The position numbers and the translations under genes are program-made. DNA of 64,000 bases from Fimbriimonadales bacterium (GTDB lineage: Bacteria > Armatimonadota > Fimbriimonadia > Fimbriimonadales > ATM1), in contig JBGTLG010000005.1 in assembly GCA_041744215.1 (NCBI GenBank), forward strand, positions 1-64,000, in the 5' to 3' direction. A model generated the notes under the pieces. It was not told where the DNA came from, did no database searches, and saw nothing but the letters and a program-made list of their open reading frames with translations. This document shows, piece by piece, positions 12,079 to 63,115 of this stretch (position 1 is its first letter; each line of letters opens with the position of its first letter).

Positions 12079-12747
12079 TTATCTTCCTTCGCTCCAGTTG
12101 TCCAACGCTCTCGCTAGCGGGCTCACTAACTCCTCAAAGAACGTTGAACAGATGATTTCGTCGATGTGGTGCTCTCCCCAAAGCTGAATTGAGACATCTG
12201 GGCAACCGAAAACGATCGGTTGCCTCTGAAGTAGTATGGGCGCCCTACCGAATTGCATGTGATCAGCCTCTTCGACTTCATTGAAGACGAGGCAATCGCT
12301 ACCGACAGCCAAACGGCGATACCCCTGGATGCAAAACCGCCCTAACTCTAACGCAAGACACTCTATCAGGTTGGGAATGGAAGGTAGTGCTCCCTTGTAC
12401 TTTACAATGAACGATTCCACCTCCGAGGAGTAGATGCGAATTGTAGAATCACTCACCTGTCCTCGTATCGCCATTAGCCACTCGCCCAAGTCTTCTATAT
12501 CTACAACCGCCAGCATAGACCACTGCTCTATGCCCAAGCTGACCTGGACTGCATGTGCGATTTCGGAAACGGCTTCTCTAAATTCCGGTTCCGACTCGTC
12601 GCCATGCGAAGTGTCAAGACTGGGAGTCGCTCGTATTCGGTAGCACTGCTGAGCTTCGATTTTATGGACCTGTATTGGCTCGGGAGCGCAAGGCACTTTC
12701 TGCCAATCCAGTTGTGCTTGCTCCACTATCCATTCAAAGGAAGCCAT
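12079..12747 (-). CDS. Hypothetical protein
   Basis: 222-aa acidic ORF, AGGGGG upstream; no recognised motif. Confidence 0.6.
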   Translation of the reverse strand: MASFEWIVEQAQLDWQKVPCAPEPIQVHKIEAQQCYRIRATPSLDTSHGDESEPEFREAVSEIAHAVQVSLGIEQWSMLAVVDIEDLGEWLMAIRGQVSDSTIRIYSSEVESFIVKYKGALPSIPNLIECLALELGRFCIQGYRRLAVGSDCLVFNEVEEADHMQFGRAPILLQRQPIVFGCPDVSIQLWGEHHIDEIICSTFFEELVSPLARALDNWSEGR

Positions 12748-12897: not shown

Positions 12898-13311
12898 TTA
12901 CTCATTCTTGTCCTCTTTTTCGCCACCAAGCCGGGAACCAGTAGCGGCTGCGTCGACGTGGTCATCCCTGAGATAGTAGATAATACCAAGCACCAAGCAA
13001 GCAGTCCGTATGCACAAAGCGAGTGAAAGCAAAAGATACGTTGCGACGCTGCCAAAATCGTTGGCTGTCACTATGATAGCAATCGCAAGAGGGACTGGAA
13101 AACCCACAAGAGAAAGGAGCAACCCCAAACAGCAACCCAATTCGCTGTAGGGATCGAAGACCGCAAAGCCAACAAAAATTAGAGCCGATACTGCAGCAAT
13201 GGCAAGTGGTTCCGGACCGAGACCAAACAGGAGCAGCGTTAGATCGAGCGTCCCCAACGCTAAGATAAAGAGCAGGAAGGCAACTTCAAACATCGTGAGT
13301 TGGAACTTCAT
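12898..13311 (-). CDS. Hypothetical membrane protein (~4 TM)
   Basis: GGAGG SD before ATG 13311; very hydrophobic. Confidence 0.6.
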   Translation of the reverse strand: MKFQLTMFEVAFLLFILALGTLDLTLLLFGLGPEPLAIAAVSALIFVGFAVFDPYSELGCCLGLLLSLVGFPVPLAIAIIVTANDFGSVATYLLLSLALCIRTACLVLGIIYYLRDDHVDAAATGSRLGGEKEDKNE

Positions 13312-13349
13312 GTCATTGATCCCTCCGCGTCTCGCCGTGCAAGCTGGAT

Positions 13350-13763
13350 TCATGCATCTTGAGTTTTATCGTGGTTTGCCGACCCATGGGCGCGGAACAA
13401 CTCCAGTGCGTCTTCCATCAGTAGCGAAGGCTTCGCGAGATCTATCAGCAATTGCTGAACATAGTAGGCACTTCTTCCCTTGCCCATTCCATCGATGCAA
13501 TCAAGTACCAGATTGTCATCAATCTTGGACAGTTCTGACGCATTTCGCTTCATCAATTGCTCAAGCAAGAGTTCAAGAAGATGGACTCTGATCCTCACAT
13601 GAGTCACAGCCATTCCCTGGTCGTGCTTTCGACGGAAAGTCAGATCAAACGGATTGAGCGGTGGCATATGGCACTCAATGTCGTGCGCCACAATTTTCAA
13701 GATCCGCTCTGCATCAGCTAGCTCCCGTTTCAAGTGATGTAGTTCCCATACTTCCTTTTCCAT
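13350..13763 (-). CDS. Hypothetical helical protein
   Basis: 137-aa ORF; ATG overlaps stop of an upstream micro-ORF (TGATG). Confidence 0.5.
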   Translation of the reverse strand: MEKEVWELHHLKRELADAERILKIVAHDIECHMPPLNPFDLTFRRKHDQGMAVTHVRIRVHLLELLLEQLMKRNASELSKIDDNLVLDCIDGMGKGRSAYYVQQLLIDLAKPSLLMEDALELFRAHGSANHDKTQDA

Positions 13764-13818
13764 CAATGGGTCGCATCGTTCTGTATGTTATCATCTGGGC
13801 GGGCGACCATCCCCCCTA

Positions 13819-14004
13819 TCATCTCGTCCAAACAAACCCGCAATCATGGCACTTCCTGTCACGGATCAATCTTATTGAGAGCAATAGGAGTGCCCCCACG
13901 ACGGTACAGACAGAAAGGATAATCAGGAAATTGTCATGGAAGAGACCGCGGTGGGAAATCCAGATGCCACAGTTTGGAGAATTGCACATAGGGCACGTGA
14001 TCAC
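13819..14004 (-). CDS. Small membrane protein with two CxxC pairs (zinc-ribbon-like)
   Basis: MITCPMCNS ... one TM ... KCHDCGFVW; GGAGG immediately upstream of start. Confidence 0.65.
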   Translation of the reverse strand: MITCPMCNSPNCGIWISHRGLFHDNFLIILSVCTVVGALLLLSIRLIRDRKCHDCGFVWTR

Positions 14005-14151
14005 CTCCGCTTTGCCTCCGATTGCGGCGGGCTTCTGCGACTGCGGATGCGTCGGCGCCTTTCATACATCAAACCTAGCACTGCCGTACCGCAACCCGCG
14101 ATCTCACGGCCACACGTGCGATGCCTTACCAAGCTCATCGACTTCCTCATT

Positions 14152-14484
14152 TCACCATAGTTGATTTCCAACCAATACCATTGCAATTGCAGTGGCGAAA
14201 AGCAATAGCTGTCGAACACACTGGGATCGACCCCGGCGATACTCCATCGCCGCCCTTATGAGTCCTACGCATCCTAAGACAACGGCTTGCACATTGGGTT
14301 CCCATTCATCGTGTAACGGGAGAAGATTTATGACGGTAATCAGGAGTGCGATAAGCGTCGCTTCGACTATGAACCAAAAGAGACGAAGCCACATCACAAT
14401 TAATGGTCCAATGAGGGAAGCTCTACGGACTCTCTCGTAAGCAGCCTCAAGTTCATCATCTTCTTTACTCATTGGTATGCCCAT
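14152..14484 (-). CDS. Hypothetical membrane protein
   Basis: 110-aa ORF, ~3 hydrophobic segments, GGAG upstream. Confidence 0.55.
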   Translation of the reverse strand: MGIPMSKEDDELEAAYERVRRASLIGPLIVMWLRLFWFIVEATLIALLITVINLLPLHDEWEPNVQAVVLGCVGLIRAAMEYRRGRSQCVRQLLLFATAIAMVLVGNQLW

Positions 14485-15278: not shown

Positions 15279-15785
15279 CTATTCTCGGCACCGCCCTCCC
15301 ATCGAACTCAGACGCTTCTTTCGGTCAATTGAAAGCGCCGAGGCCCAATGTTCGCTCAGTCTGTCCAACATTCTATTCCACTCTTTGTGAAACTCGCGAT
15401 CACGACGTTTTACATCTCGCCAGAGGCTAAGTAACTCTCTCAAATCCCCCAGGGTCTCGGCGTGAACAGGCACTAGCTCCTCGTCAACTTGTGGCAGCAC
15501 AGCACTCACCGATTCGAGTCGTTCGATGTTTGCTTTTAACGCTGAATGTATTCTGACGAAATCATAAGGATCCCAAATGAACAGGCCGCTATTCGCACGC
15601 ACAATCGCAATAACAACTGCCTTGTTAAACTTGGACTCTTTGAGAGCGTTTTCAACTGTTTCGGTAGCCATGCGAATGTCGCTTCTTTTGGACGCATAGG
15701 AAAGCGCGAAGTAGGCAATCACTACAATCACAAAGACGATGAAAGCAACATCTAACATCGAGTCAATAAGTGAAAGGTGAGTCAT
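15279..15785 (-). CDS. Hypothetical protein with N-terminal TM anchor
   Basis: 168-aa ORF; VAFIVFVIVVIAYFAL followed by helical soluble domain. Confidence 0.6.
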   Translation of the reverse strand: MTHLSLIDSMLDVAFIVFVIVVIAYFALSYASKRSDIRMATETVENALKESKFNKAVVIAIVRANSGLFIWDPYDFVRIHSALKANIERLESVSAVLPQVDEELVPVHAETLGDLRELLSLWRDVKRRDREFHKEWNRMLDRLSEHWASALSIDRKKRLSSMGGRCRE

Positions 15786-39533: not shown

Positions 39534-40493
39534 TTAATGGAAAACGCTGGCACGTCGCAATCGATCAAGGATCGCCGCCCACTCTGGCTGCGGCGGAGGC
39601 TTTTCCACGACGATGGCGTCCAGCTCCAGCTGGTCCAGTTCGCGCAAAGTGGAGTACAGTGCCGCGCCATATTCGTCGGGCCCAGTCGGCATGCTCCTGA
39701 CCTCCGCCCCATCAATGCCCGTTACGCCGATAGGCATCCAGCCGACCTTCATTCCCGACTGGGTCAACGACTCCACGAGCGCCGATCCGTTCCCTTCGGC
39801 CAGGTGCAGCCGCGTGCGCGTCGCGTAGTGCCGCTCGCCTTGACCTGGCGACCGTGAAGGTCCGGTCTCCGGCCCAGTCTCGACTTGCCCGACGATCAAC
39901 TCGATTTGAGCACGCGAGACGGATCCTGGCCGGAGGATTCTCGGGGGCGAGGTGGTTACGTCCAAAACCGTGCTCTCGATCCCCTTGGGGCTCTGTCCGC
40001 CATCAATGACGATTTCTACACTTCCTTCGAGATCATCCAGCACGTGGCGAGCGGTTACCGCTGAGACTCCCGTTGATCTATTCGCGCTCGGGGCGGCGAT
40101 CGGCACACCTGCGGCCAAGATCAACGCTGAAGCAATCGGATGGGACGGGCAGCGCAAACCGACCGTTGGCCCGCCAGCTGTCACTGGGCCTGGGACAACG
40201 CCGGATTTCCAAACAACCAAAGTTAGTGCGCCAGGCCAAAAACTGTCTGCAAGCTCTCGGGGCACTTTCCCGAGTTGCGATGCCATTTCAAAACCTGATA
40301 CGTGGACGATCAGGGGGTTGGCCTGTTCGCGGTGCTTCGCCTCGAAGATGCGGCGCACTGCAGATTCGTCCAGAGCGTTTCCGCCCAGCCCGTAAACAGT
40401 CTCAGTCGGAAACGCGACAAGGCCGCCTGCAAGGATGACCTCAGCAGCTTCGCGGATCGTCTCCGCGGTGGGTGGGAGCAGTCGCGTTCTCAC
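39534..40493 (-). CDS. tsaC: Threonylcarbamoyl-AMP synthase (Sua5-type)
   Basis: VAFPTETVYGLG, NPLIVH, AAPSAN, ESTVLD, SPGQ..RHY, AILDRLRRA. Confidence 0.95.
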   Translation of the reverse strand: MRTRLLPPTAETIREAAEVILAGGLVAFPTETVYGLGGNALDESAVRRIFEAKHREQANPLIVHVSGFEMASQLGKVPRELADSFWPGALTLVVWKSGVVPGPVTAGGPTVGLRCPSHPIASALILAAGVPIAAPSANRSTGVSAVTARHVLDDLEGSVEIVIDGGQSPKGIESTVLDVTTSPPRILRPGSVSRAQIELIVGQVETGPETGPSRSPGQGERHYATRTRLHLAEGNGSALVESLTQSGMKVGWMPIGVTGIDGAEVRSMPTGPDEYGAALYSTLRELDQLELDAIVVEKPPPQPEWAAILDRLRRASVFH

Positions 40494-40529
40494 GTTGCGA
40501 GTTTACAGGAGTGCTGATACAATGACCGA

Positions 40530-40811
40530 ATGAGAATCAGATGGCTTGGTTTGATTTGCTTGGCTGTTGCGGTGCTCGGCTGCGGGGCCGAACCTGCGCC
40601 TGACCAGGCCCAAGGCGATGGTGGTGGGGGCGGAGCCGGGGGCGGAATGGTCACCTCACCGGGCGCCGGGCCGATCGCTCCGGTTGATCCTTACACCGAA
40701 CTCGGCGGTGGGGGTGGCGGCGCGCAGGGTCAGGTCGCAAAGGACCGGGCAAAGTCGGCGGCTGCAAAGGCCGGGCAGGGGTCTCTGGGCGGCTACACCG
40801 AGGGGGAGTAG
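40530..40811 (+). CDS. Small Gly-rich lipoprotein
   Basis: MRIRWLGLICLAVAVLGC lipobox; poly-Gly tracts; TACAAT 6 nt before ATG. Confidence 0.75.
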   Translation: MRIRWLGLICLAVAVLGCGAEPAPDQAQGDGGGGGAGGGMVTSPGAGPIAPVDPYTELGGGGGGAQGQVAKDRAKSAAAKAGQGSLGGYTEGE

Positions 40812-40997
40812 TTACTCGCCGCTTCTCTGGCGATACTTCTTAGCTTGGTCAGGATCAACTTTTCGCATTCGGCGCAACAGTTCATTGTCGCCGCCAGGTT
40901 TCTTTATGTCGCGCTTGGGCGGTCCGCTGTCGTCGCCCGGTTTCCGCTCGGGAGTGGGGATATCTCGTTCTCGGCGTTCCGCATGGATTCGCATCAT
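40812..40997 (-). CDS. ubact: Ubiquitin-like protein UBact
   Basis: 61 aa, charged and disordered; ends LLRRMRKVDPDQAKKYRQRSGE matching the UBact R[ST]G[EQ] terminus; Dop and PafA homologues within ~7 kb. Confidence 0.92.
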   Translation of the reverse strand: MMRIHAERRERDIPTPERKPGDDSGPPKRDIKKPGGDNELLRRMRKVDPDQAKKYRQRSGE

Positions 40998-41054
40998 AGG
41001 ACTTATACCGTCCTTTCGACAGAAAACGTGGCATCGGAGCGGTAATCTCTCCCA

Positions 41055-41510
41055 ATGGACTCGATCAGGATCGTCCGTGCCGACCTGGAAAATGACGCGC
41101 ACGTGAGTGCGATTTGCGAGCTCACGAACATGTACGCCTTCAATGCGACAGGCGAGCCACTTGACCCAGCAGTGCTCAACAATTTACCCGAGGCGTTGCG
41201 AGCGCATCCATCGATCGAGGCGTTGATTGCCTACATCCAGGATCAGGCAATTGGCATTGCGACTTGTGTGCTATCTTTCTCCAGTTTCTCAGCAAAGCCA
41301 ATTCTCAACCTGCATGATCTTGCGGTGCGCCCGGACTATCGCAACCTGGGTATCGGGCGAAAGTTGCTCATTGCAGTGGAAGAACTCGCGCGAGAATTGG
41401 GCTGTTGCAAGGTCAGTTTAGAAGTCCACCCGACAAACCCGGCGCGAGATTTGTATCGGCGGTGCGGATTCGAAGAAGTGTCGATCTATTGTGTTAAGGA
41501 ACCGCTGTGA
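41055..41510 (+). CDS. GNAT acetyltransferase
   Basis: LNLHDLAVRPDYRNLGIGRKLL acetyl-CoA motif; N.ARDLYRRCGF. Confidence 0.92.
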   Translation: MDSIRIVRADLENDAHVSAICELTNMYAFNATGEPLDPAVLNNLPEALRAHPSIEALIAYIQDQAIGIATCVLSFSSFSAKPILNLHDLAVRPDYRNLGIGRKLLIAVEELARELGCCKVSLEVHPTNPARDLYRRCGFEEVSIYCVKEPL

Positions 41511-41642
41511 GTTGCGCGACGCCCGAGTCATACTTCCTGCAGGCTTATTGAACTGCTGATCACTCTTCGGGCGAAGGAAAGGGCACGCTACAGGTCCACG
41601 GCGTCGACACGATGTCAGCTTGCTTCTCCATCGCAAGCCATC

Positions 41643-43370
41643 CTACAAGCCGAAGGCTTTTACGATGTCCTGATTCGTGTGGAACGTGGCGGATTCTGCG
41701 GGTGTGTCGTAGACAATGAACTCTTCTCGTTTATTCTTATCGCAGGTCACCCATCCGTCGTCGATCATCGCCTCTAAGGTGGCAATGGCATAGTCCATGC
41801 CCATCGCAATTGTCGGATACTTCGGATTCTCATAGAAGTAGTTTTCGAGCCATTGGAGCGCGCGCACGATACGGTGGTCTTCTTGGAGCATTTTAATCAC
41901 GAGCCCGAACATCCCGTAGTTCGGTAGCAGCTTTCCGTTGCGCTTATAACATGGCGTCGTCCACACCTTTCCTTCGGAGAACACCGGAAACGTAGATTCT
42001 TCTGCACCCTCTAAGTCGAGCTTGAAGACGTTGTATTCGCTGACTTTCCACGTCGCACGCGTTTGGCTGATCCGAGCAAGTTGAATTTTAACAGCTTGAA
42101 TAGCGAAACCGCCCAACATTGGAACGACGGGGTCATCGTTGGTGAACCCGCCAGTGGCCATCCAGCCGAACGCGGCGTTCGAACTCATATCGTGCCCAGA
42201 CTCCTTCGCGATAGTCTTGCAATAGTCAACCAAGTCGGTAAACGCGCCGTTCGAGCTGTACCAAAAGTCTGCGAACTTGATGTGCTGCAGGATTTGGCTG
42301 CGCTGTTTATCAGAGTAATAGGATTTGAGCCACTCGCCATCGTGAGAGCCTTGCATCTCGGCGATGATCGAGTAAGCGACCTGGCGGGCGCCGAACATTG
42401 CGAGTGTGAGCCCTGCGGAGAGTATCGGATCGGCAAATCCGCAGCTATCGCCAGCAAGGTACCAGTTCTCTCCGGCGAGGCGGTCGGCGATGTACGACCA
42501 GTCGTTGGTCGTCCGAATCACATTCTCGCGAGTGGCCTTGCGAATGAGCTCAGCGATAAGCGGATCCTGCTTCACAGCCTTCGCATACAAATCCTCAGGT
42601 CGCTCTCCAGACTTCTTGTAGTGCTCGAGCGGAAGTACTAAGCCCAAGCTCGTCTTCGTTGGGGCGATGGGAATGAACCAGAGCCAGCCCCAATCAATCG
42701 AGACAACCAAAATGCGTGTCCCTCCAGCGCCGACCTTCACTGCCCAATCAGCGTTGTCCCAGTAGTCCCAAATCGCGATGTTTCGGAGTGAAGTAGGATA
42801 GTCGGCTTCGACGCCCAGCGCCTTGCGCAGAATGCTCGAAACGCCCGAAGCGTCGACATACTGTTTTGCGCGAATTGTCTCGCCCGATTGGAGCACCAAC
42901 CCGTCGACGTGATCACCGGTTGATTTTACTTCGACAACTTTCGTCTCCTCCCGCACGTCACAACCAAGTTCAGCTGCATGATCAAGTAAGATCTCGTCGA
43001 ACACCGGGCGGTAGACTTGCCATGTAGTGTGGACTCGCTGGCCTTCAAAGGTGCCGGGCCTCTGATCCTCGCGGAACAGATGTGTGGGAAGGAACTCGAA
43101 ATCCCAGAGGTCGCGCTTCTTTCCCCATCGGCAGGTCGCGCCAATCTTAATCGGGAACTCTGCGGCCTCTACTTTGTCCCACGCCCCCATCTCATGGATA
43201 ACTTGAGGCACTATTGGCAAGAGGCTCTCGCCAATATGGTCACGAGGGAACTTTTCGCGCTCGAGGATCACAACTCGGCAGTCGGGCATATACTTTTTCA
43301 ACAAGCTGCCACAACAGCTTCCCGCCGGTCCACCACCAATTATGGCTACATCAAACTGAACTTCCTGCAT
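41643..43370 (-). CDS. Flavin-dependent halogenase family protein
   Basis: IIGGGPAGS, FPRDHIGESLLP, WGWLWFIPI (WxWxIP), GDSCGFADPILSAG. Confidence 0.88.
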   Translation of the reverse strand: MQEVQFDVAIIGGGPAGSCCGSLLKKYMPDCRVVILEREKFPRDHIGESLLPIVPQVIHEMGAWDKVEAAEFPIKIGATCRWGKKRDLWDFEFLPTHLFREDQRPGTFEGQRVHTTWQVYRPVFDEILLDHAAELGCDVREETKVVEVKSTGDHVDGLVLQSGETIRAKQYVDASGVSSILRKALGVEADYPTSLRNIAIWDYWDNADWAVKVGAGGTRILVVSIDWGWLWFIPIAPTKTSLGLVLPLEHYKKSGERPEDLYAKAVKQDPLIAELIRKATRENVIRTTNDWSYIADRLAGENWYLAGDSCGFADPILSAGLTLAMFGARQVAYSIIAEMQGSHDGEWLKSYYSDKQRSQILQHIKFADFWYSSNGAFTDLVDYCKTIAKESGHDMSSNAAFGWMATGGFTNDDPVVPMLGGFAIQAVKIQLARISQTRATWKVSEYNVFKLDLEGAEESTFPVFSEGKVWTTPCYKRNGKLLPNYGMFGLVIKMLQEDHRIVRALQWLENYFYENPKYPTIAMGMDYAIATLEAMIDDGWVTCDKNKREEFIVYDTPAESATFHTNQDIVKAFGL

Positions 43371-43567
43371 CACACCCGCTCCCTATCGGCCTATCCGTTT
43401 TCCCTCCTCGGGCGCCAACCCTGGGTCTAAAGAGCCGATAGTCGAATGTACCACGTTGCCACCTGCTGGGGCTATACGCGCTGAGAGTGCCCGGACTGCT
43501 GACAAAGGGAAACGATGCTGCCAGCGAAGTGCCAGGTGACCGCCGTATGATGGGCGACTAAGGCTTC

Positions 43568-43906
43568 ATGCGTACCTTTCGCGATCCCACCGTTCAGTTC
43601 TGTGTGGCGCTGATCACCGCACCTCTGCTTGCCATAACGGGGAGTTCAATCGCGTCGTCGAATTCCTTTTTCTGGGGAACATCAGTCGGGTGGTTTCTCA
43701 CTGTCGTTGTCATTGCTTACTTCGCATGGCGGTCTGTGCGTCACCAGTGGCGGAGCGCGCCAAAGCAGGCGGAAACGGGTAGGCCAGATCTAGCGAAGAT
43801 GGGTCCTATTGATATCGGGCTGTTACTTGGAATCACCTTCGTCGCTGTTCTGGGAGCCGCCGGTGCCGTGGTCGCGCTGATAGCAGTGGTAATGACTATG
43901 AGTTGA
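43568..43906 (+). CDS. Hypothetical membrane protein (3 TM)
   Basis: 112-aa ORF with three hydrophobic segments filling an intergenic gap. Confidence 0.6.
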   Translation: MRTFRDPTVQFCVALITAPLLAITGSSIASSNSFFWGTSVGWFLTVVVIAYFAWRSVRHQWRSAPKQAETGRPDLAKMGPIDIGLLLGITFVAVLGAAGAVVALIAVVMTMS

Positions 43907-43920
43907 ACTGAGTTTCTAAA

Positions 43921-45312
43921 CTACTCCCCGATCAGGAACTCGTATTCTTCGCCACTTTTCAACTTTGCCCTTCGCCACCCAATTGTCTCTAGACCTTCGC
44001 GCATGTGAGTAACGAGATCTCCGCGTTGCTTAGCGCGGGTGTCCTGTGGCGGCGTTGTCGTCGCCTCGATAACGCGACTCTCGGGGATGATCGTCTGGCC
44101 GCGGCCCATTTCGATCCATGCGGTGAATAGCGACTCCTGTGGATCAAGGTTGTGATACTCCATGTCCAGTGACTGCATATGCGCGAGGTCCCACTTGCCC
44201 TCCGCCTGAGAAAACTCTTCGAGCATTGCAAGCTTCGCTGCCCAATCGACCCGGTCTGACAGCTTGTGTGGATCGAGTGCTGCATCAGTTTGTGCAAGTC
44301 GCCATTCCGCCAGCGCCCAATCGGTTTCGGCATCGCGATGGAGGAAGTGCCGCTCAGCGGCCGAGAGATACCCATCCAGAACATCGATCGCAGTCGTCCA
44401 CGACGAGCCTTCGAGCTCCAGCCGCCATTGGAGGCCTTCGTCCTTGCTGAGAGCTTCCGCTGCACGAGGAGGATTACAGATCTCAAAACGAGGAGCCTCG
44501 CCAATGGATATCAGATCCAGAGCGAGCTGAGTCGTAGCGACTTTCATTGCCGTCGCCCACGGCATCCTGTTGGCATCGCCACAGATAACGTGGACTCTAC
44601 GCCACTTGTTTGGGTCTGCATGCGGTTCGTCGCGAGTATTGAAAATGGGCCGACGGTAGAGCGTCTCGATGTTCGCGACTTCATGAAAGAAGTCCGCGCG
44701 TTGGCTGATTTGGTAGCGACACGCTCGTCCTGCCTCGGCGCCGACTTTTCCCGCACCAAACATAACAATGCGCGTCACGAGAAATGGAAGCAAGTCGCGA
44801 ATCAGTTGATCCGGCGAGGCTTTGCGGGGGAATAGGTAGTTTTCGTGAGTCCCATAGCTCGCGCCGTGAAAATCGGTGTTGTTCTTGAAAACCCGTGTGC
44901 GCTGGCCGGTTGACCGTTCGAACGCAGTTGCCGTCGCAAGAAGCACACGTTCACCCGCGAGATCGTGCGCTACGATGTCAGAGATGTGAGAGCATTCCGG
45001 AGTTGCGTACTCCGGATGTCCATGATCGTTGTAAAGTCGTGCGCCGTTGGTCAGTACACGGTTCGCATGAAGATCGCGATCCATCGTTCGCGTTTTGCCG
45101 GTGTCGAACTCCGCGTCGACAGGATCATAAGCGAGGTCCTTGACTTGGAAACCTCTAATGTCCTGACGCGGTGACTCGAAGCCGTAATCCCAGCCGACGA
45201 AAGCGGGGAAGGGGCAATGTTCCACGAAGGCCGCCGAGTCGTCGATTTGCTCGGCGGCCCCGCGGCCTTCGATACTCAGGCCGTACTCGGTTTCAATTCC
45301 GAATAGGCGCAC
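43921..45312 (-). CDS. dop: Dop-like deamidase/depupylase (PafA2 family)
   Basis: GIETEYG, VLTNGARLYNDHGHPEYATPEC, KNNTD..GASYGTHENY, SQRADFF, RPIFNTRDEPHAD, RVHVICGDAN. Confidence 0.92.
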   Translation of the reverse strand: MRLFGIETEYGLSIEGRGAAEQIDDSAAFVEHCPFPAFVGWDYGFESPRQDIRGFQVKDLAYDPVDAEFDTGKTRTMDRDLHANRVLTNGARLYNDHGHPEYATPECSHISDIVAHDLAGERVLLATATAFERSTGQRTRVFKNNTDFHGASYGTHENYLFPRKASPDQLIRDLLPFLVTRIVMFGAGKVGAEAGRACRYQISQRADFFHEVANIETLYRRPIFNTRDEPHADPNKWRRVHVICGDANRMPWATAMKVATTQLALDLISIGEAPRFEICNPPRAAEALSKDEGLQWRLELEGSSWTTAIDVLDGYLSAAERHFLHRDAETDWALAEWRLAQTDAALDPHKLSDRVDWAAKLAMLEEFSQAEGKWDLAHMQSLDMEYHNLDPQESLFTAWIEMGRGQTIIPESRVIEATTTPPQDTRAKQRGDLVTHMREGLETIGWRRAKLKSGEEYEFLIGE

Positions 45313-45322
45313 ATTGCTTGTT

Positions 45323-45970
45323 TTACTTGAGAACGCCGGTCACTGTCGCATCGACGGGCTGACCGTCTGCCATCGGGACGATCCAATTCTTGATCTTGAT
45401 TTCAAACTTCAACACCTTGCCGTCTCGACTGACCCAGTACATTCCGTCGGAACTCGTCCGATCACCGGCATCCTCCGAGGTGGTCATGTGTATTTTGAGA
45501 GCCTCTTTGTCGCCGACCTTCTCTTCGCCTCGGGCTTCACACTTAAAGGTGAAAGTTCCGCCCTCGGAGCCTCTGTGTTCTAGCGTCCACTTGTCGCCGA
45601 TTGATACTGGCTTGTCTGGATAGACGAGAAAGATCGGAGCAGACATCCGTCGGAACGCGTCCCCGTGTTCGCTTTGACTCGCGAGTGCGTTGCCGCGGGG
45701 ACTGAGCCGGAGATCAAACTCTCCGTCGCTATCTTGCGCCATGCCTTCAACTTCCAGGTCAGCGAAGACGACATTCCCTCGCGTCTCCTTTTCCGAGACT
45801 TCTGTCACTCGAAACACGTACGTTAGCCGGACGCTAAGGTCTGTGCCTTGAACATTCACCGCGACGTTCGTGTTCCATGCGGTAGTTTCTCCCTTCTGAA
45901 AGGGCGGAGCAAGCTCCCACGCTTGTGCGGGGGCTGAGAGTGTTAGCAAGGCCAATGTGGGCAGTATCAT
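45323..45970 (-). CDS. Secreted beta-rich hypothetical protein
   Basis: AGGAGG SD, ATG 45970, signal peptide MILPTLALLTLSAPAQA; YPDKPVSIGDKW. Confidence 0.75.
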   Translation of the reverse strand: MILPTLALLTLSAPAQAWELAPPFQKGETTAWNTNVAVNVQGTDLSVRLTYVFRVTEVSEKETRGNVVFADLEVEGMAQDSDGEFDLRLSPRGNALASQSEHGDAFRRMSAPIFLVYPDKPVSIGDKWTLEHRGSEGGTFTFKCEARGEEKVGDKEALKIHMTTSEDAGDRTSSDGMYWVSRDGKVLKFEIKIKNWIVPMADGQPVDATVTGVLK

Positions 45971-46028
45971 GGTGTCCTCCTGATTGTGGGTTGTAGTCGG
46001 TACTTGTGGGTTATGAGTTGGGTTGCCG

Positions 46029-46628
46029 CTACCAGGCGAAAGTCCCGACAAACGCAGCAGATTCCTCGCCTCGGCTCCACGTTTCACCAAGAAGTGGATC
46101 GCAAAATGACTGCCGTTGGACAGTAGCCACATCGACTTTGGTGCCGAGAACCAGGGGCTTGAACCACAGGACGCCCGCCATAGAGCAGGTGTGACATTCA
46201 GAAGAATTGGTTTCGGCTGCTATCACCGTGATTCCGCCCGCCGAGACTCTCAACTCTGAGTCGAGCCCAGAAACCTCCAGCTGGATCTGCGCAGGTTGAA
46301 CTGAAACCACGGATCCGAGGCCTGCCCGCGGTTTTAGATAATCCGTCATCCTCTGCCCTTGCTCCTCGGTGGCTGCCGAGTCAATGTAGATAACTGCTTG
46401 GCGGTTTGCGCTCAAGTTGAGGTTGACGTCTCCCAACACGACTGCCGCTGCGGCGAGCCCGTCGAGCCCTTGGCCAGACTCGAAGCCTAAAGCGACAATT
46501 GCGCCCCGGCCGTCCGTCATGATCTCGCTGTTGTAGTGACAGGGTCCCGCGTAAATGGAGCACGTTCGGGTTTCGAAGTAGATTCCGGTGACTCCAATCG
46601 TCGCGACTGCTGCTATGGCTGTGAACAC
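46029..46628 (-). CDS. DUF1326-like protein
   Basis: YFETRTCSIYAGPCHYNSE, IYIDSAATEEQ; GGAGG SD. Confidence 0.65.
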   Translation of the reverse strand: MFTAIAAVATIGVTGIYFETRTCSIYAGPCHYNSEIMTDGRGAIVALGFESGQGLDGLAAAAVVLGDVNLNLSANRQAVIYIDSAATEEQGQRMTDYLKPRAGLGSVVSVQPAQIQLEVSGLDSELRVSAGGITVIAAETNSSECHTCSMAGVLWFKPLVLGTKVDVATVQRQSFCDPLLGETWSRGEESAAFVGTFAW

Positions 46629-46656
46629 TCGAATACCTCCGCTAGGTTGCTAGTCG

Positions 46657-46662
46657 ATTATA
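46657..46662 (-). promoter_or_regulatory. Consensus -10 box for the DUF1326-secreted protein unit
   Basis: Perfect TATAAT on minus strand 28 nt upstream of GTG 46628. Confidence 0.55.
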
Positions 46663-46683
46663 CGAGACTTAGTCCGAAATCGT

Positions 46684-48153
46684 TTACTTACCAGTTCCAC
46701 CGGCTTCTCGCTCGTATGTGTTGAACGGATCACTCAGCTCAACGACGGTTTGACGATCGAGGTGAACGGCGTCCCAGTCAACCCAATAAGTTGGTCGCTT
46801 GCTGGCGATCAGCTTTCTGATCAAAGCTGCGCGACCCTTAGCTCTCGTGTTATCTGGTGGCTCGGTCATCGCGTCGACAATTCTCAGATCGTCAACTACT
46901 TCAACCGCAGCGTCCATCTCGACGAGCCCCTGATGAAGGCTCCTTCTTGGGTCGATGTTGTGATACTCCAGGTCCACCGAGTGAAGCGCGTCATCATCCC
47001 ACCTTGCATCTGCCTCACGCATGTAGGTCTCCACAACTTGCTTCTTCGCTACCCAGTCAAGCTTCTTCGAGAGTGACATAGGGTCCCGTTCAAGCGCGTC
47101 AAGGGTCTCCTCCCAATTCGTAAGCGTCCAATCCGTGTCCTCATCCCTTCCTCGGAACTGTTGGGCGATTCCGAGATACTCACGATGGAGGTCGATTGCG
47201 GACATAGTGCGGCCACCATCCAGATGCACGATCCACCGGTACGATGGGTCGCGGCTCACCTCTCTTAACGCAGTAAGCGGATCTGGCATGAGCAGGTCGT
47301 CGGGAATCAGGTGATTTTCGACGAGGTCAAGCATCAGGCATGTCGTCCCAACTTTGAGGGCGTATGCAAACTGCATCTGATTCGCTTCACCGAACAAGAC
47401 GTGCAGACGGGTAGAGGCTCCATAGCTATAGAACGACTCCCACTTCGGATTGATGAGCGCGCGGTTGAATCGAACGCGGCTGGCAGTGAGCTTGATGATG
47501 TGGTCCGCACGTTGGCTGAGCTGAAAATCTACATCTTCGTCGGGTTGCACGCCATAGACATTCGAGACCCAAATGTAATCGACTGGGTTCGAAAACATCG
47601 TCGAGTTCGTTCGTGTGCCGGTGTAGTCGATGCGATGCCCACCGACCCGCCCGACCCCCGCGTATATCTGCCGCGTCACCAAGAATGGGTAGAGGTAGTT
47701 GACAGACTCCGTGAGGAACCGATCCTCGGACTTCACGAGATAGTTTTCGTGGCAGCCGAAAGTGTGCCCGCCGAAATGATCGACACTATTGTTGTAGAAC
47801 GCTGCGACCTCGCTGAGTCCTATCTCGTCGAGGGCCCTTACGATGATTCGTTGACCGGCGCGGTCTGAAGCAATGAGATCGAACAGGCGTCTGCACTCCG
47901 GTGTCGCATACTCTTCATGGGACCCCACTGCGTCCACGTAGAGCCTGCCGCCGTTAATGAGAAACCCGCCACTGTATGCCGGTTCGAAGGCCTCGTCCCG
48001 CGGGTGCAAGTCGTATACCCCGAGCTTCTGCGTTTCGAAGACGTGGTCCTTCACAGCCTCTACGACCGCCTCGTAAGTGTAGGGCTCGCCGGGTTCAACG
48101 AGACAGCCAAACTCGGTTTCTACTCCGAATATGCGGTTCATTCCTTCCGCCAC
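46684..48153 (-). CDS. pafA: PafA-like Pup/UBact--protein ligase
   Basis: RIFGVETEFG, GFLINGGRLYVDAVGSHEEYATPEC, GCHENY, LSQRADHI, RLHVLFGEAN, DWVAK, DLEYH, TRAKGR, VDWD. Confidence 0.9.
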   Translation of the reverse strand: MAEGMNRIFGVETEFGCLVEPGEPYTYEAVVEAVKDHVFETQKLGVYDLHPRDEAFEPAYSGGFLINGGRLYVDAVGSHEEYATPECRRLFDLIASDRAGQRIIVRALDEIGLSEVAAFYNNSVDHFGGHTFGCHENYLVKSEDRFLTESVNYLYPFLVTRQIYAGVGRVGGHRIDYTGTRTNSTMFSNPVDYIWVSNVYGVQPDEDVDFQLSQRADHIIKLTASRVRFNRALINPKWESFYSYGASTRLHVLFGEANQMQFAYALKVGTTCLMLDLVENHLIPDDLLMPDPLTALREVSRDPSYRWIVHLDGGRTMSAIDLHREYLGIAQQFRGRDEDTDWTLTNWEETLDALERDPMSLSKKLDWVAKKQVVETYMREADARWDDDALHSVDLEYHNIDPRRSLHQGLVEMDAAVEVVDDLRIVDAMTEPPDNTRAKGRAALIRKLIASKRPTYWVDWDAVHLDRQTVVELSDPFNTYEREAGGTGK

Positions 48154-48192
48154 GCCTCATTCTACGCCCAGCGACGGCGGTATCCTGCGGGC

Positions 48193-49764
48193 GTGCCCGG
48201 CAGAGCGTGGATATTGGCTTGGATTATCGCACTCACTCCTTTGCTTGGCTTTTGGGCATACGGTTTGTTCGACCTTGACGAAGGAATCTATGCTGCGTCA
48301 CTCCGTGAGATGATGGCGCGGGGGGACGCGTTCGTCATCATGTTCGACGGTGCGCCATTTCTTGAAAAGCCAATTCTCGTTTACTGGGTGGCCTGGGGAT
48401 TCGACTTATTGGGTTTTACGGGGGAGTTCGGCTTGCGGCTTGGGTCAGTCCTTGCCGCCATTGGCACACTGGCGATCTGTACAGCGTTCGCAAGGCGACG
48501 ATTTGGGGAACACGCTGGAGCGTGGACGTTGCTGATCCTCGCCTGTTCGCCCCTCTTCATGATCGTGGCAAGGATGTTTATTCCGGATGCCCTCTTTGTG
48601 TTCTTTCTTACTGCTTCTCTCCTCGTCTTTTGGGAGTCTCTGGAACGTCGAGGTTTGCGTATCCTCTCAGCGGTTTTGTTGGCAGCGGCTGCCCTGGCAA
48701 AGGGGCCCGTCGCTCCGGCAATCTTCCTTCTGCTTGTGATCTATGCACTTTTCAGACTGCCAACAATTCGACACGGTCTGCGGGGGGGATGGGTCGTGGG
48801 GACGCTCGCGTTCATCAGTGTTGTCGCTCTCTGGTATGTGCCGATCATGTTGGACAAGGGTCCAGAGTTCGTCAAAGAGTTCATCCTTTTTCAGAATCTT
48901 GGACGATTGGCTGGGGAGGACGAAGCTCATCGTGGGGACTTCTACATCTACGTTCCCATCATCTTCGTCGCTCTCGCCCCGTTCATCTTCGCAATCAAGA
49001 GAGCATTCATCGGTCTCCGGTCAAAACCTATCGAGCGCTTTCTTTGGGCGTGGGCGATTCTGGTCTTCGTGATTTTCAGCGCGGCTGGTTCGAAACTGCC
49101 ACACTACATCCTGCCGTGCTTGCCTCCGTTGGCGATTTTGCTCGCGGCGCAACTGGCAGAGGATCCTCCGTCGGGTTGGTGGGCAGTCGGCTGGGCGATC
49201 GTAGCTGCTGCCGGTGTGTGGACAGCATGGGGGTTCTTAGAGGAGTATCGCCAGGCCGTCATGCCTCTGGCCGGCGGGGCCAGTCTTGGAGTGCTGCTCT
49301 CTCTTCGTGCAGTCATGCGAGGAGCACGGCTCGGCGCCGCTGGGGCAGGAGCCGCATGGCCGGTTGCTGTCGCTGGGCTGGTTCTTGGTGTCCCGGCATA
49401 CTGGCAAGTCTCACATGCAGACGCCGTGAAGGCGGCGGAGGCCGCGTATGCTGACGGTGGGGAACAGGTCGTGGAGTTTCGGGTGGAAGGGCTCGGCGGC
49501 AGGATGGTCACGTCGCATCCAAGCACTTACTGGTACTTCGGTCGGCCGAGGGCATCGACCTACTGGTTTGACGAACTGGTTGACCAGTTGCCAGCCCAAG
49601 GCCGAATACTAACTCGAAGGTCCAGGCTGACCCTGGGCCATCTCGACGCGCTGCGGAGCCTTGGCTTGAGCGTCAGCCGAGAACGAGTGGTCGGTGAGTA
49701 CGAGATCTACAGGTTCTTTAGGGACCCAAACAGCGCAAACCCGCTGGTTAAGCCCACCGGTTAG
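48193..49764 (+). CDS. ArnT/PMT-family (GT-C) glycosyltransferase
   Basis: LFDLDEGIYA, FLEKPILVYW, LAKGPV, SKLPHYILP; start reassigned to GTG 48193. Confidence 0.88.
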   Translation: MPGRAWILAWIIALTPLLGFWAYGLFDLDEGIYAASLREMMARGDAFVIMFDGAPFLEKPILVYWVAWGFDLLGFTGEFGLRLGSVLAAIGTLAICTAFARRRFGEHAGAWTLLILACSPLFMIVARMFIPDALFVFFLTASLLVFWESLERRGLRILSAVLLAAAALAKGPVAPAIFLLLVIYALFRLPTIRHGLRGGWVVGTLAFISVVALWYVPIMLDKGPEFVKEFILFQNLGRLAGEDEAHRGDFYIYVPIIFVALAPFIFAIKRAFIGLRSKPIERFLWAWAILVFVIFSAAGSKLPHYILPCLPPLAILLAAQLAEDPPSGWWAVGWAIVAAAGVWTAWGFLEEYRQAVMPLAGGASLGVLLSLRAVMRGARLGAAGAGAAWPVAVAGLVLGVPAYWQVSHADAVKAAEAAYADGGEQVVEFRVEGLGGRMVTSHPSTYWYFGRPRASTYWFDELVDQLPAQGRILTRRSRLTLGHLDALRSLGLSVSRERVVGEYEIYRFFRDPNSANPLVKPTG

Positions 49765-59789: not shown

Positions 59790-60807
59790 GGTGGCCGAGC
59801 ATGCGCGATCTTGTGGCGCAACGGTTAGCTACTTAGGAAGTCTTCGCGGCATTGAGGGTGACGAGTGTCGCAAGCGCGATATGCCGTTCGTCGGGTTGAA
59901 CACAGGGCCACTCTGGCACCTCCTTACACCGCGGGGTTGGGTCGCACTTGCAGGAACCCTCCGCGCAGTGACCGTCGCGAGAAAACACCTGTTAGCCAAC
60001 AGACCCGATGTCGTCCTTTCAACTGGTGGCTACGCGGCAGGTCCAGTACTTTCCGCAGCAAGAACGATCGGCATCCCGTTCGTTATCCATGAGCAAAACA
60101 CGATCCCAGGGCGAACGCATCGACTCGCCGCGAGATTCGCGCGGACAGCTTGTGTCGTTTTTGATGAGGCGGCAGGAATGTTCAGCTGCAAAACAGTGCG
60201 CACAGGAATGCCAATACGAAAGGATCTCATTGAAGCGGCCGCCCGTTCGTCGAAGGATTCGCGTATCTCAACTCTCATCTTTGGCGGCTCTCAAGGCGCG
60301 GCGGCCATCAACGAAGCGGTTCTGACTCTCGTGATGCAACACGGCTCAGAAGGCAGCTGGCTCCACCTCACCGGGCCCAAGCTCTACGAGGAGGTAGCGA
60401 AAACTGCGGAGCGACTTGTGTCCGCCCCGAACTATCGGATCAAGGGATACCTGGACGGCGTAGAGATGGCTGATGCCCTGTCTGAAGCCTCGATTGCTAT
60501 CTGCAGATCTGGAGCCGGCACCGTATCCGAACTTGCGCTTTTTGGTGTGCCAGCCGTGTTCATTCCGTTTCCCTATGCTCAGGCTGACCACCAGTTCCAT
60601 AATGCGAAAGCAATCGAGAAGATCGACGGCTCAATCGTAATGCGACAAACCGAAATGACTCCTCAAAATCTTGCTGACGCATGGGCCAGGTGGGCTCACG
60701 ACCCGGGCAAGAGGGCCCAGGCTGGCCGACGTCTTCGCGAATGGGCATATCCGGACGCAACGGAACGAGTATGGAAGGTGATTCAGGAGGTTGCGGTTGC
60801 GCCTTAA
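59734..60807 (+). CDS. murG: Lipid I GlcNAc transferase MurG
   Basis: GGGTGGHVYP, HEQN, GGSQGA, RSGAGTVSE, HQFHNA; AGGAGG SD before GTG 59734. Confidence 0.97.
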   Translation: MQLLVTGGGTGGHVYPALEVAEHARSCGATVSYLGSLRGIEGDECRKRDMPFVGLNTGPLWHLLTPRGWVALAGTLRAVTVARKHLLANRPDVVLSTGGYAAGPVLSAARTIGIPFVIHEQNTIPGRTHRLAARFARTACVVFDEAAGMFSCKTVRTGMPIRKDLIEAAARSSKDSRISTLIFGGSQGAAAINEAVLTLVMQHGSEGSWLHLTGPKLYEEVAKTAERLVSAPNYRIKGYLDGVEMADALSEASIAICRSGAGTVSELALFGVPAVFIPFPYAQADHQFHNAKAIEKIDGSIVMRQTEMTPQNLADAWARWAHDPGKRAQAGRRLREWAYPDATERVWKVIQEVAVAP

Positions 60808-63115
60808 GTCGGAGATCGAAAGTTGGTTCGGAGCAAACCAACGTCTGCCTGAATCCGGGCGCATCCACTTTATCGGAATCGGCGGCAGCGGCATGAGCGC
60901 GATTGTTCGCATCCTCCTGCATCAAGGCCGAGAAGTGAGCGGCTCGGATCGAGAGCTTTCCCCTACCCTCGCAGATCTCCGAGAACGCGGAGCAGTCGTT
61001 TACGTAGGTCATCGGGCTGAGAACATCGACGGTGCCAGCGCAGTCATTGTTAGCGATGCAGTAGACCTTGACCTCAACCCAGAAACACGCGAAGCCCGCG
61101 CTCGAGGCATTACGTTGCTTCGTCGCTCGCAGGCGCTTGGAGAAATCGTAAACAAACGCAAGCCGATTGCGATCACCGGAACACACGGAAAGAGCACGAC
61201 GACCGCGTTGCTAACGGCAATTCTAGTTTCAGAGGGGATGGATCCGTTCGCGGTCGCTGGCCCTGCGGTAGCTACTTGGGACGGGAATGTGAGATTGGGT
61301 CAAGGAGACTTTGCGGTTGTTGAGGCATGCGAGGCGTTTGACGGATTTCACGACATTGATCCGCAGTTGGTGATCCTCACCAACGTCGAGGCGGATCATC
61401 TCGAGTTTCATGGCTCAATCGAGGATCTGCTCGACAGCATCACTCGGTTTTGCCAAAGGGCCCAGATGAATCCCGGATTGATATACTGTGCCGAAGATCG
61501 CGGGGCTCTCGAGGTGGCACGCAGGATTGGCAGCGGTGTCCCGTATGGATTTGGTTTACCTCCTTTCAACGCAGCTTACGCCGAGGGTGAGTTGCATACG
61601 GAGTTCGGCAGTGTTCGGCTAAAGGTGCCGGGGCGGCACATGGCTTTGAATGCAATTGGGGCCGCCACTGCAGCGATTCAGTTGGGGATCACTCCCGAGG
61701 CAGCGATTCACTCCCTCGGGAGTGCTGCAGGATGCCAGCAGCGCCTGGAGGTACTTGGTGAAGAGCGCGGAGTCTTAGTAATCAACGACTACGCGCACCA
61801 TCCGACCGCGATCAAAGCTTCCTTTCAAGCTCTCCGCGAGACATACCCGGGACGTCGGCTCGTAGCTGTGCACCAGCCGCACACCTACACACGCACACGA
61901 GATATGCGCGCCGAGTTCGTTGATGTGTTGGCGACTGCAGATGTGGTAGTGCTTACAGACATCTGCCCAGCGCGCGAGCGGCCGATTCCGGGTATCTCGA
62001 CTGCGCTCTACGTCGAAGATCTGGAAGCTCTTGGGAAGGAAGTTCACTATGTTCCTTCGCGGCATCTCGCGCCGCGCGAAGTCCCAAAGATTGTTCGGTC
62101 GGGAGACGTCGTTACCGCATTTGGAGCGGGAAACATTTCATCGTTTGCACCGGACTTCTTAAAGGAATTGCGACGTGAACGCGAGCCGTTGCGAGTCGCA
62201 GTTCTTTTTGGAGGAGAATCGACCGAGCGAGAAATCTCGCTCCTTAGCGGACTGATGGTCTCTGAAGCGCTCGAGAGGCGGGGATACCAAGTGACCGTTC
62301 ACGATCCCAACGAGGTGTTGTTGTACTGGTCCGATTTGCACCCGCTCGTCGGTTATTCTCGGCCAGACATCGTGTTCCCGGTCCTCCACGGTCCGCGTGA
62401 CGAGGACGGTTCTGTACAGGCTCTCCTGGATCTCTTACACCTTCCGTACGTTGGTTCCGGAGTCGTGGCCAGCGCGCTTTGCATGGATAAAGAGCGTACG
62501 AAGCAGTTTTTGTCAGCTCGAGGCATTCGGGTGCCCCAAGGGATCTTGCTCCGACGCGGAGACCCCCTCGGCTCGCCGCAGGTGCCGGCTGTCGTAAAGC
62601 CAAATGCGCAGGGATCTACGATTGGGTTGAGCTTTGTCGAGAATCCTGCCGACCTCGCAAACGCGATTGAAAAAGCGCTCAGATACGACGACGCGGTTCT
62701 TGTCGAGGAGTGGCTGCAGGGTGTCGAGATTAGCGTCCCTATCGTAGGTGATCAAGCACTCCCGGCCGTTGAAATTGTGCCAATGGACGGTGCTTACGAT
62801 TTCGCCGCCAAGTACACCCCAGGGGCAACCCAAGAATTGGTGCCCGCTCGAATCACTTCTGCATTGGAAGAATCGGCAAGAGCAACCGCGTTGGCGGTAC
62901 ATGAGATGCTTGAACTGGAGGATTACAGCCGATCAGACATGATCGTGCGAGGTGATGAAATCATCGTCCTCGAAGTTAACACTATTCCGGGGCTCACGCC
63001 GACTTCACTCTTGCCACGCAGCGCGGAAAGTGTTGGCATGTCCTTCGACTCGTTATGCGAGCAGATTCTGCAGATTGCGTTGGATCGCCATGGCATCAAC
63101 AAAGCGAAGTCGTAA
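60791..63115 (+). CDS. murC-ddl: MurC-Ddl fusion (UDP-MurNAc--L-Ala ligase + D-Ala--D-Ala ligase)
   Basis: HFIGIGGSGMS, GTHGKSTTT, DYAHHPT, QPH, then GGESTEREISL, LHG..EDG, MDK, YDFAAKY, EVNTIPG in one 774-aa ORF. Confidence 0.94.
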   Translation: MRLRLKSEIESWFGANQRLPESGRIHFIGIGGSGMSAIVRILLHQGREVSGSDRELSPTLADLRERGAVVYVGHRAENIDGASAVIVSDAVDLDLNPETREARARGITLLRRSQALGEIVNKRKPIAITGTHGKSTTTALLTAILVSEGMDPFAVAGPAVATWDGNVRLGQGDFAVVEACEAFDGFHDIDPQLVILTNVEADHLEFHGSIEDLLDSITRFCQRAQMNPGLIYCAEDRGALEVARRIGSGVPYGFGLPPFNAAYAEGELHTEFGSVRLKVPGRHMALNAIGAATAAIQLGITPEAAIHSLGSAAGCQQRLEVLGEERGVLVINDYAHHPTAIKASFQALRETYPGRRLVAVHQPHTYTRTRDMRAEFVDVLATADVVVLTDICPARERPIPGISTALYVEDLEALGKEVHYVPSRHLAPREVPKIVRSGDVVTAFGAGNISSFAPDFLKELRREREPLRVAVLFGGESTEREISLLSGLMVSEALERRGYQVTVHDPNEVLLYWSDLHPLVGYSRPDIVFPVLHGPRDEDGSVQALLDLLHLPYVGSGVVASALCMDKERTKQFLSARGIRVPQGILLRRGDPLGSPQVPAVVKPNAQGSTIGLSFVENPADLANAIEKALRYDDAVLVEEWLQGVEISVPIVGDQALPAVEIVPMDGAYDFAAKYTPGATQELVPARITSALEESARATALAVHEMLELEDYSRSDMIVRGDEIIVLEVNTIPGLTPTSLLPRSAESVGMSFDSLCEQILQIALDRHGINKAKS

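Follow-up and report, generated by a model that had tools for sequence, protein, structure and literature searches.

UBact is a described analogue of the protein tag Pup. It is about 60 aa long, is defined by a C-terminal R-[ST]-G-[EQ] motif and was reportedly described originally by Lehmann et al. in BBRC (Biochemical and Biophysical Research Communications) in 2017. In the UBact systems described for Gram-negative phyla (Pfam PF20513, NCBIfam NF033388), this tag of ~60 aa with its R-S-G-E/Q end is encoded beside two Pup-ligase paralogues, and the same components are found in the DNA analysed here, a stretch of 64 kb (the window) from a soil-type Fimbriimonadales bacterium of the Armatimonadota. 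The contig from which it was taken measures 91,712 nt, so at least 27.7 kb lie outside the window. All on the minus strand, the window encodes UBact and two Pup-ligase family enzymes, one Dop-like and one PafA-like, and the three open reading frames (ORFs) are intact. It is very probable that they form the UBact conjugation set of this bacterium, with a tag, a predicted PafA-type ligase and a predicted Dop-type deconjugase, because the family matches exceed the curated cut-offs for UBact and for Pup_ligase. The system is a known one, with Pfam and NCBIfam models and relatives annotated at NCBI, and the window holds an additional member with a derived gene order. In itself, it adds little beyond another member in an NCBI-annotated phylum.

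Compared to the described UBact systems, the window differs in that UBact lies 3.1 kb from the Dop-like gene with two unrelated genes between them, in that the PafA-like gene is upstream of the Dop-like gene, and in that no ARC or proteasome gene is present in the 64 kb, whereas most relatives have them. With the actinobacterial Pup-proteasome system (mpa/arc, dop, pup, prcB, prcA, pafA), it shares the enzyme family, the presence of a Dop-loop, the contrast between D-H-x and D-x-V-G-S signatures, and a tag ending in Glu/Gln, and the usual Armatimonadota loci are colinear with the actinobacterial mpa-dop-pup-prcB-prcA...pafA order. Contrary to the actinobacterial system, the tag of the window belongs to another family, both enzymes score under the equivalog cut-offs, and the ligase clade has PKWE-x-[FY]-Y for TRDEPHA together with a 35-residue insertion. 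A third comparison is with the proteasome-less pupylation of Corynebacterium and Micrococcus, where tag, ligase and depupylase are likewise found without neighbouring proteasome genes. According to the account given in PMC8223512, such actinobacteria lost the proteasome subunits secondarily. Their genomes are known to be without proteasome genes, whereas the window covers only 64 kb, and ARC is kept in their locus, as a figure legend of PMC8223512 indicates, whereas the window has no ARC. Finally, section 5 of PMC7947786 mentions sporadic Dop/PafA homologues in Armatimonadetes.

The UBact tag and its two enzymes

The UBact gene (40812..40997, minus strand) is located 2.9 kb from the Dop-like gene and 5.7 kb from the PafA-like gene, on the same strand. 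Its reading frame extends over 40812-41102(-) and closes with YRQRSGE followed by the stop codon. An ATG at 40997, with AAGGA about 13 nt upstream, gives a protein of 61 aa, which fits the 58-62 aa typical of UBact homologues. The protein matched PF20513 at 66.8 bits (cut-off 27.8, E 1.4e-18) and NF033388 at 67.9 bits (cut-off 35), and no match to the Pfam Pup family was detected even at E<=10. In a six-frame search of the window, a single UBact-like segment was found, scoring 108 bits. In this order and phylum, relatives of the core proteins already carry the NCBI names "ubiquitin-like protein UBact" and "proteasome accessory factor PafA2 family protein"; they belong to metagenome-assembled genomes (MAGs) of Fimbriimonadales, Fimbriimonadaceae or Armatimonadota. 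The closest homologues are 90% identical for UBact (NCBI-named UBact proteins of Fimbriimonadales MAGs), 81% for the Dop-like protein and 84% for the PafA-like protein, and Fimbriimonas ginsengisoli has a PafA-like orthologue with 62% identity.

We then considered the terminal residue of the tag. Among the best 120 UBact homologues, 72 end in RSGQ and 48 in RSGE, and the nearest homologue (90% identity) has a Q ending, unlike the E of the window. In the related loci described below, the E ending was found in 9 of the 25 loci that contain ARC, both proteasome genes and a PafA-like gene, and in 8 of the 19 others. The terminal Glu is therefore uninformative about the proteasome, since complete loci also end in E and since E and Q alternate among close relatives. 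A preliminary description of this DNA had taken the broken gene order as a sign of separate regulation or of a proteasome-independent tagging role; neither this order nor the E ending indicates proteasome independence. For Pup, the rule given in PMC8223512 is that a terminal Glu is ligated without prior deamidation. By analogy, it is reasonable that an E-ending UBact could be ligated directly, and the Dop-like enzyme would then be a deconjugase, because a tag that already ends in Glu needs no deamidation. Covalent attachment of UBact to the lysines of target proteins is what would be expected.

The Dop-like gene (43921..45312, minus strand) encodes a protein of 463 aa that matched the Pup_ligase family PF03136 over its full length at 462 bits. 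Its score was 378.7 bits against the Dop model TIGR03688 and 80 bits lower, 298.6, against the PafA model. Likewise, it scored 308 bits against the solved Dop 4b0r versus 171.5 against the solved PafA 4b0t. The alignment to 4b0r spans the Dop-loop, which precedes strand beta-2 and in which the loop Trp is kept (W-D-Y versus W-D-F), and 83 residues separate the GxExE motif from the strand of the catalytic Asp, compared to 56 in the PafA-like protein and 38-43 in reference PafA proteins. The catalytic Asp is followed by H-G (D-H-G) with no insertion, and at this place the best 120 homologues have H-G in 98 cases and H-A in 21. As described in the passages of PMC8599861 on the loop, all Dop and none of the PafA proteins have a Dop-loop, whose Trp is highly conserved, and in Table 1 of PMC7947786 a D-H-A type sequence without insertion after the catalytic Asp is the Dop state. 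Since it has both the loop with its conserved Trp and D-H-G after the Asp, the 463-aa gene is Dop-type. Its product is a predicted UBact deconjugase, and would be a deamidase in relatives whose tag has the Q ending. TRDEPHA is retained in this protein. The C-termini of the Dop-like protein and of its 81% homologue P0123 are about 25 residues shorter than those of other Dop-like proteins.

The PafA-like gene (46684..48153, minus strand) encodes 489 aa and matched PF03136 over its full length at 404.9 bits. In the database copy, the protein starts four codons later, at 48141 (485 aa), and this is the probable true start. The protein has no Dop-loop, and its catalytic Asp is followed by A-V-G-S (D-A-V-G-S), which corresponds to the PafA insertion x-V-G-S. 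A-V-G-S was found at this position in 117 of the 120 best PafA-like homologues, and reference PafA proteins have V-G-S or V-G-A. In Table 1 of PMC7947786, the PafA state is characterised by V-G-S inserted behind the catalytic Asp and by the lack of a Dop-loop. With respect to the PafA alpha-loop, H-x-W-E-G-x-S-S-A-x-x-R-S, the protein matches the His and one Ser and differs at the other positions. Because the Dop-loop is absent and the x-V-G-S insertion is present, the 489-aa gene is PafA-type, and its product is a predicted UBact-protein ligase. The three genes with their coordinates and strand, as well as the assignment of one ligase-family gene to Dop and the other to PafA, had been proposed in the preliminary description, and the family models and the signatures on either side of the Dop/PafA distinction uphold both.

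Family membership, ligase-type versus depupylase-type signatures, intact core catalytic motifs and atypical gene order were observed directly; the chemistry of the UBact system is throughout that which homology predicts. By homology to pupylation, the PafA-like enzyme would activate the side-chain carboxylate of the terminal Glu of UBact at the expense of ATP and couple it to lysines of target proteins. The Dop-like enzyme would reverse this by cutting the isopeptide bond, and no deamidation would be required. Tagged proteins would most likely still be passed to an ARC-type ATPase and a proteasome encoded outside the window. The set probably originates from a compact locus of ARC, Dop, UBact, beta subunit, second proteasome gene and PafA-like gene, which most Armatimonadota keep and which was rearranged in the lineage of the window.

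Diverged features of the PafA-like clade and origin of the two enzymes

Several results weigh against the reading of the three genes as a UBact conjugation set. Both enzymes score below the equivalog cut-offs, with 378.7 bits for the Dop-like protein (TIGR03688, cut-off 492.3) and 277.3 bits for the PafA-like protein (TIGR03686, cut-off 551.3), and the latter score is only 6.7 bits above the Dop score of the same protein. The fold comparison does not separate Dop from PafA: with an AlphaFold2 model of the PafA-like protein (predicted local distance difference test, pLDDT, 87.5), Foldseek gave template modelling (TM) scores of 0.79-0.81 to Dop and 0.73-0.78 to PafA. In the Armatimonadota PafA-like clade, N-P-K-W-E-x-[FY]-Y stands in place of N-T-R-D-E-P-H-A. 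The phylogenetic trees disagree on the deep split of Dop and PafA, and in the LG+C20 tree (44 rows) actinobacterial Dop groups with PafA and the two UBact-lineage clades group together (88/92, a branch that is unstarred). The Pfam scan detected a proteasome domain or a proteasomal-ATPase OB domain in 0 of 50 window ORFs. Moreover, the literature search did not turn up experiments on UBact conjugation. In a sequence search of the PDB, the PafA-like protein also scored higher with Dop (221 bits) than with PafA (173 bits).

The replaced motif deserves attention. N-T-R-D-E-P-H-A is common to reference Dop, reference PafA and Dop-like proteins, and the PafA-like protein has N-P-K-W-E-S-F-Y. P-K-W-E starts the replacement in at least 115 of the 120 best PafA-like homologues, and R-D-E-P is kept by relatives from outside the Armatimonadota that branch on this side of the tree (P0243, P0248 and P0250). 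In the numbering of A. cellulolyticus Dop, read from the alignment, the Arg of the motif is R227 and the His is H231. As reported in the structural passages of PMC8599861, R227 is highly conserved and touches the phosphate mimic, and H231 stacks with the loop Trp. In the PafA-like protein, Lys is found at the Arg position of N-T-R-D, and Phe or Tyr at the His position in the clade. In addition, about 35 residues are inserted in this clade, of which residues 179-198 were modelled as disordered with pLDDT <50. Both the substituted phosphate-contact Arg and motif His and this poorly modelled insertion would suit a PafA-like protein that is not a working ligase, being a pseudo-enzyme or having altered chemistry, with the Dop-like protein doing the real work. 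We regard this as very improbable. The new motif and the A-V-G-S sequence are each kept in nearly all of the best homologues as counted above, the PafA-like protein is better conserved than the Dop-like protein towards more distant Fimbriimonadales (62% versus about 50% identity), and phosphate binding by a Lys is still feasible. An alignment of 36 PafA-like proteins showed no variation at the glutamates of GxExE, the catalytic Asp, H-x-E-Y, HENY, Q-R, R-L-H or N258. Since all other core motifs are invariant in these sequences, we read PKWE as a conserved variant of the ligase clade and not as decay. ATP-dependent ligation of the terminal Glu of the tag to lysine is the predicted activity of the PafA-like protein, and the conserved PKWE motif offers a concrete handle for in vitro work on UBact ligation.

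The relationship between the two ligase-family genes was addressed by phylogeny. Reference rows were 50%-cluster representatives scoring above the equivalog cut-offs (3 PafA and 4 Dop), obtained by scanning 80 of 112 full-length representatives. A quick LG+G4 tree of 75 rows separated Dop and the first gene from PafA and the second gene (96*). The different topology of the LG+C20 tree would fit another history, in which the two genes arose by duplication within the UBact lineage, independently of the actinobacterial Dop/PafA split, so that their features would be convergent and their roles might differ. Section 5 of PMC7947786 also describes single-copy Planctomycetes homologues that partly align with the Dop-loop; the loop may thus be an ancestral feature, possibly with repeated losses. 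However, the branch that pairs the UBact-lineage clades is unstarred, and an approximately unbiased (AU) test did not reject the first arrangement (delta lnL, the difference in log-likelihood, 4.77; p-AU 0.384). The x-V-G-S insertion common with PafA and a gene order colinear with actinobacterial loci favour orthology instead, and we hold a separate duplication to be improbable. In the LG+C20 tree, the Dop-like protein of the window is sister (100/100) to a clade with the loci L001, L003 and L023, to which the LG+G4 tree adds L030.

Gene order in related loci and the proteasome

To compare gene order, we used 52 related loci obtained from one scan of genome contigs with six peptide patterns from the Dop-like protein of the window. 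They are nearly all from Armatimonadota or Abditibacteriota; the best identities are 50% for a full-length match and 58% for a partial one, and the relatives with 76-84% identity are not among them. The loci were processed by ORF calling, clustering, Pfam scans of cluster representatives and searches with hidden Markov models (HMMs). Their usual order is ECF-type (extracytoplasmic function) sigma factor, ARC, Dop-like, UBact, proteasome beta, second proteasome-family gene and PafA-like. ARC in these loci consists of an AAA domain and two proteasomal OB domains, the H-G-T-T processing site of the beta subunit is invariant, and the second proteasome-family gene scored 22.3 bits, just under the cut-off of 22.4.

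ARC is at most 1 kb upstream of Dop in 32 of 46 evaluable loci. In 43 of 48, UBact follows downstream of Dop and ends at a distance of at most 1000 nt, and 4 loci lack UBact. The beta subunit is within 2 kb of Dop in 38 of 41 evaluable loci, and the second subunit and the PafA-like gene follow downstream in 26 of 35, the PafA-like gene directly after the proteasome genes. Between the stop codons of Dop and UBact, the median distance is 266.5 nt and the maximum 1318 nt (n=44), and it is 3109 nt in the window. A PafA-like gene upstream of Dop was found in the window only and in none of the 52 related loci. Therefore, given the distance of UBact from Dop and the upstream position of the PafA-like gene, the layout of the window is derived. 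The preliminary description had called this layout dispersed. The order is indeed atypical by comparison with relatives, but the term overstates the case, since the four genes from PafA-like to Dop-like form a tight run on the same strand.

In L001, L003, L023 and L030, which belong to the sister clade of the window's Dop-like protein, Dop, UBact and beta are adjacent, and a predicted lipoprotein is located upstream where the other loci have ARC. No second proteasome gene or PafA-like gene was found within 10 kb in these four loci. This partial dispersal in the sister clade indicates that dispersal predates the lineage of the window, which represents a further step. The predicted lipoprotein gene lies directly upstream of Dop (L001 2432-3901; L003 8691-9989; L023 8647-9981; L030 8640-9986; and also L044 3965-5236). 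In these loci of Fimbriimonadales or Chthonomonas type, its product is 420-490 aa long with a G-C-G-G lipobox and belongs to no Pfam family, and each of the five has one proteasome-family gene only, of the beta type, after UBact. We had considered this upstream gene of the sister clade as a diverged ARC, which was ruled out by its being a predicted lipoprotein without a Pfam family. Concerning closer relatives of the window, a PafA-like homologue (79% identity) and a Dop-like homologue (76%) come with the same longest contig size, 57,829, which suggests that the linkage of ligase and Dop is kept in a close relative. Four further loci (L034, L040, L043 and L052) carry a Dop-like gene that has neither UBact nor proteasome genes in its vicinity; two of them are from Abditibacteriaceae, another bears the label Prosthecobacter and the last derives from an uncultured bacterium. 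The Dop-like gene stands between genes for a WD40 protein and a trypsin-like/C-type-lectin protein in L034 and L052, and in L043 a LuxC-like acyl-CoA reductase gene follows it.

We next searched the window for the proteasome. The sole AAA protein among the 50 Pfam-scanned ORFs was Lon. Lineage HMMs, one each for the beta subunit, the second proteasome gene and the ARC of the relatives, were built and run unfiltered on 1794 six-frame segments. These models recover 50, 38 and 32 ORFs, respectively, in the related loci, and in all 1794 segments of the window they detected nothing, the best match being that of the ARC model to Lon (E 0.086). The statement of the preliminary description that the window is without a proteasome subunit or an ARC/Mpa ATPase is thus confirmed by both approaches. 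The DUF1326-like and secreted-protein genes located between the two enzymes (described below) had been considered as diverged proteasome subunits and were rejected, as no lineage HMM matched them and the atlas places them in DUF1326 clusters and in DUF6263 or Armatimonadota hypothetical clusters.

Provided that the module is real, an ARC-type ATPase and a proteasome are rather likely to be encoded outside the window. It is possible, although unlikely, that the lineage has instead lost the proteasome, and perhaps ARC, and that UBact tagging has become regulatory, as in the proteasome-less pupylating actinobacteria. The negative searches of the 64 kb, even with lineage HMMs, and the missing beta subunit, so constant near Dop in relatives, would be accounted for in this way, as would the long stems on which the Dop-like clade including the window stands in the LG+C20 tree (0.5 and 0.35 changes per column). 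However, absence from the window is not absence from the genome when part of the same contig lies beyond it, the sister clade (L001, L003, L023 and L030) keeps an intact catalytic beta subunit beside UBact, and the E ending is as uninformative here as noted above. More specifically, but quite doubtfully, the lineage may have uncoupled UBact from the proteasome altogether, with ligase and deconjugase in an operon with the DUF1326-like and DUF6263-like genes, the tag transcribed apart, the modification reversible and regulatory, and the ligase clade having a phosphate motif rebuilt from TRDEPHA to PKWE-x-[FY]-Y. If proteasome loss were true of the whole genome, the locus would be a Gram-negative parallel to proteasome-less pupylation. 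The rearranged order shows that the genes for tag, ligase and deconjugase can remain linked even when those of the proteasome are displaced or lost.

Neighbouring genes and other features of the window

The genes lying between the three core genes are those listed in the preliminary description (GNAT, halogenase, membrane, secreted and DUF1326-like). From the PafA-like gene onwards, a DUF1326-like gene (46029..46628, minus strand) comes first; it scored 21.8 bits against Pfam DUF1326, below the cut-off of 25, and has an atlas score of 0.93 with 30 of 30 matches in DUF1326 clusters. It is followed by a gene for a secreted protein (45323..45970, minus strand), 10 nt upstream of the Dop-like gene, whose signal-like N-terminus begins at Met55 of a longer ORF, 45323-46132. 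The secreted protein matched DUF6263 weakly (19.2 bits, below the cut-off of 26.7), and its atlas score was 0.95-0.96 to Armatimonadota hypothetical and DUF6263 clusters. From PafA-like through DUF1326-like and secreted protein to Dop-like, the genes share a strand and are spaced by 55, 58 and 10 nt, compatible with a single transcript. By position only, the DUF1326-like and secreted proteins are candidate members of the system. Homologues of the intervening genes are missing from the 52 related loci, save for one weak DUF6263-like match of 33 bits, which in L044 lies upstream of Dop.

On the plus strand, 43568..43906 is an ORF of 112 aa, in which a hydropathy scan detected hydrophobic stretches. 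It matched no Pfam or NCBIfam family at E<=0.001 and gave only a chance-level match at E 5.9, and it is possibly not a gene. UBact is separated from the Dop-like gene by a gene for an FAD-dependent (flavin adenine dinucleotide) halogenase/monooxygenase-like enzyme (41643..43373, minus strand; Trp_halogenase 91.8 bits, FAD_binding_3 80.7 bits), which scored 177 bits against CmlS, 121 against QhpG and 88 against LodB, all far under the cut-offs. The UBact gene diverges from that of a GNAT acetyltransferase (41055..41510, plus strand; Acetyltransf_1 69.6 bits), with 57 nt between the start codons. A scan for promoters and terminators over 40300-48600 did not give counts above those of shuffled sequences (5 sites versus 3.4 +/- 2.0 and 8 versus 8.4 +/- 3.5), and we therefore drew no operon boundaries. 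As for a possible cause of the rearrangement, there was no Rfam match and no tRNA gene in the window, and no repeats beyond the similarity of the two paralogous ligase-family genes.

Housekeeping genes flank the UBact locus; one side has dnaE and sua5, the other a glycosyltransferase gene and the division cluster that extends from mraZ to murC/ddl. At its longest (47917-49764, plus strand), the ORF of this PMT_2/ArnT-like glycosyltransferase shares 237 nt with the oppositely oriented PafA-like gene, at the 5' end of the latter; the true start of one or both genes is probably further in, leaving a short divergent promoter region. Between 12000 and 16000, the GC content is 0.505-0.517, compared to 0.53-0.58 elsewhere in the window, and four ORFs of this region (12079-12747, 12898-13353, 13661-14164 and 15279-15785) have no Pfam family at E<=1e-5; the region may be an island of foreign or fast-evolving genes. 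Finally, the division and cell wall (dcw) cluster, which runs from 49910 with mraZ, rsmH, ftsI, murE, murF, mraY, murD, ftsW and murG, ends with a gene at 60791-63115(+) for a 774-aa MurC-Ddl fusion, in which Mur ligase domains are followed by D-Ala-D-Ala ligase domains.

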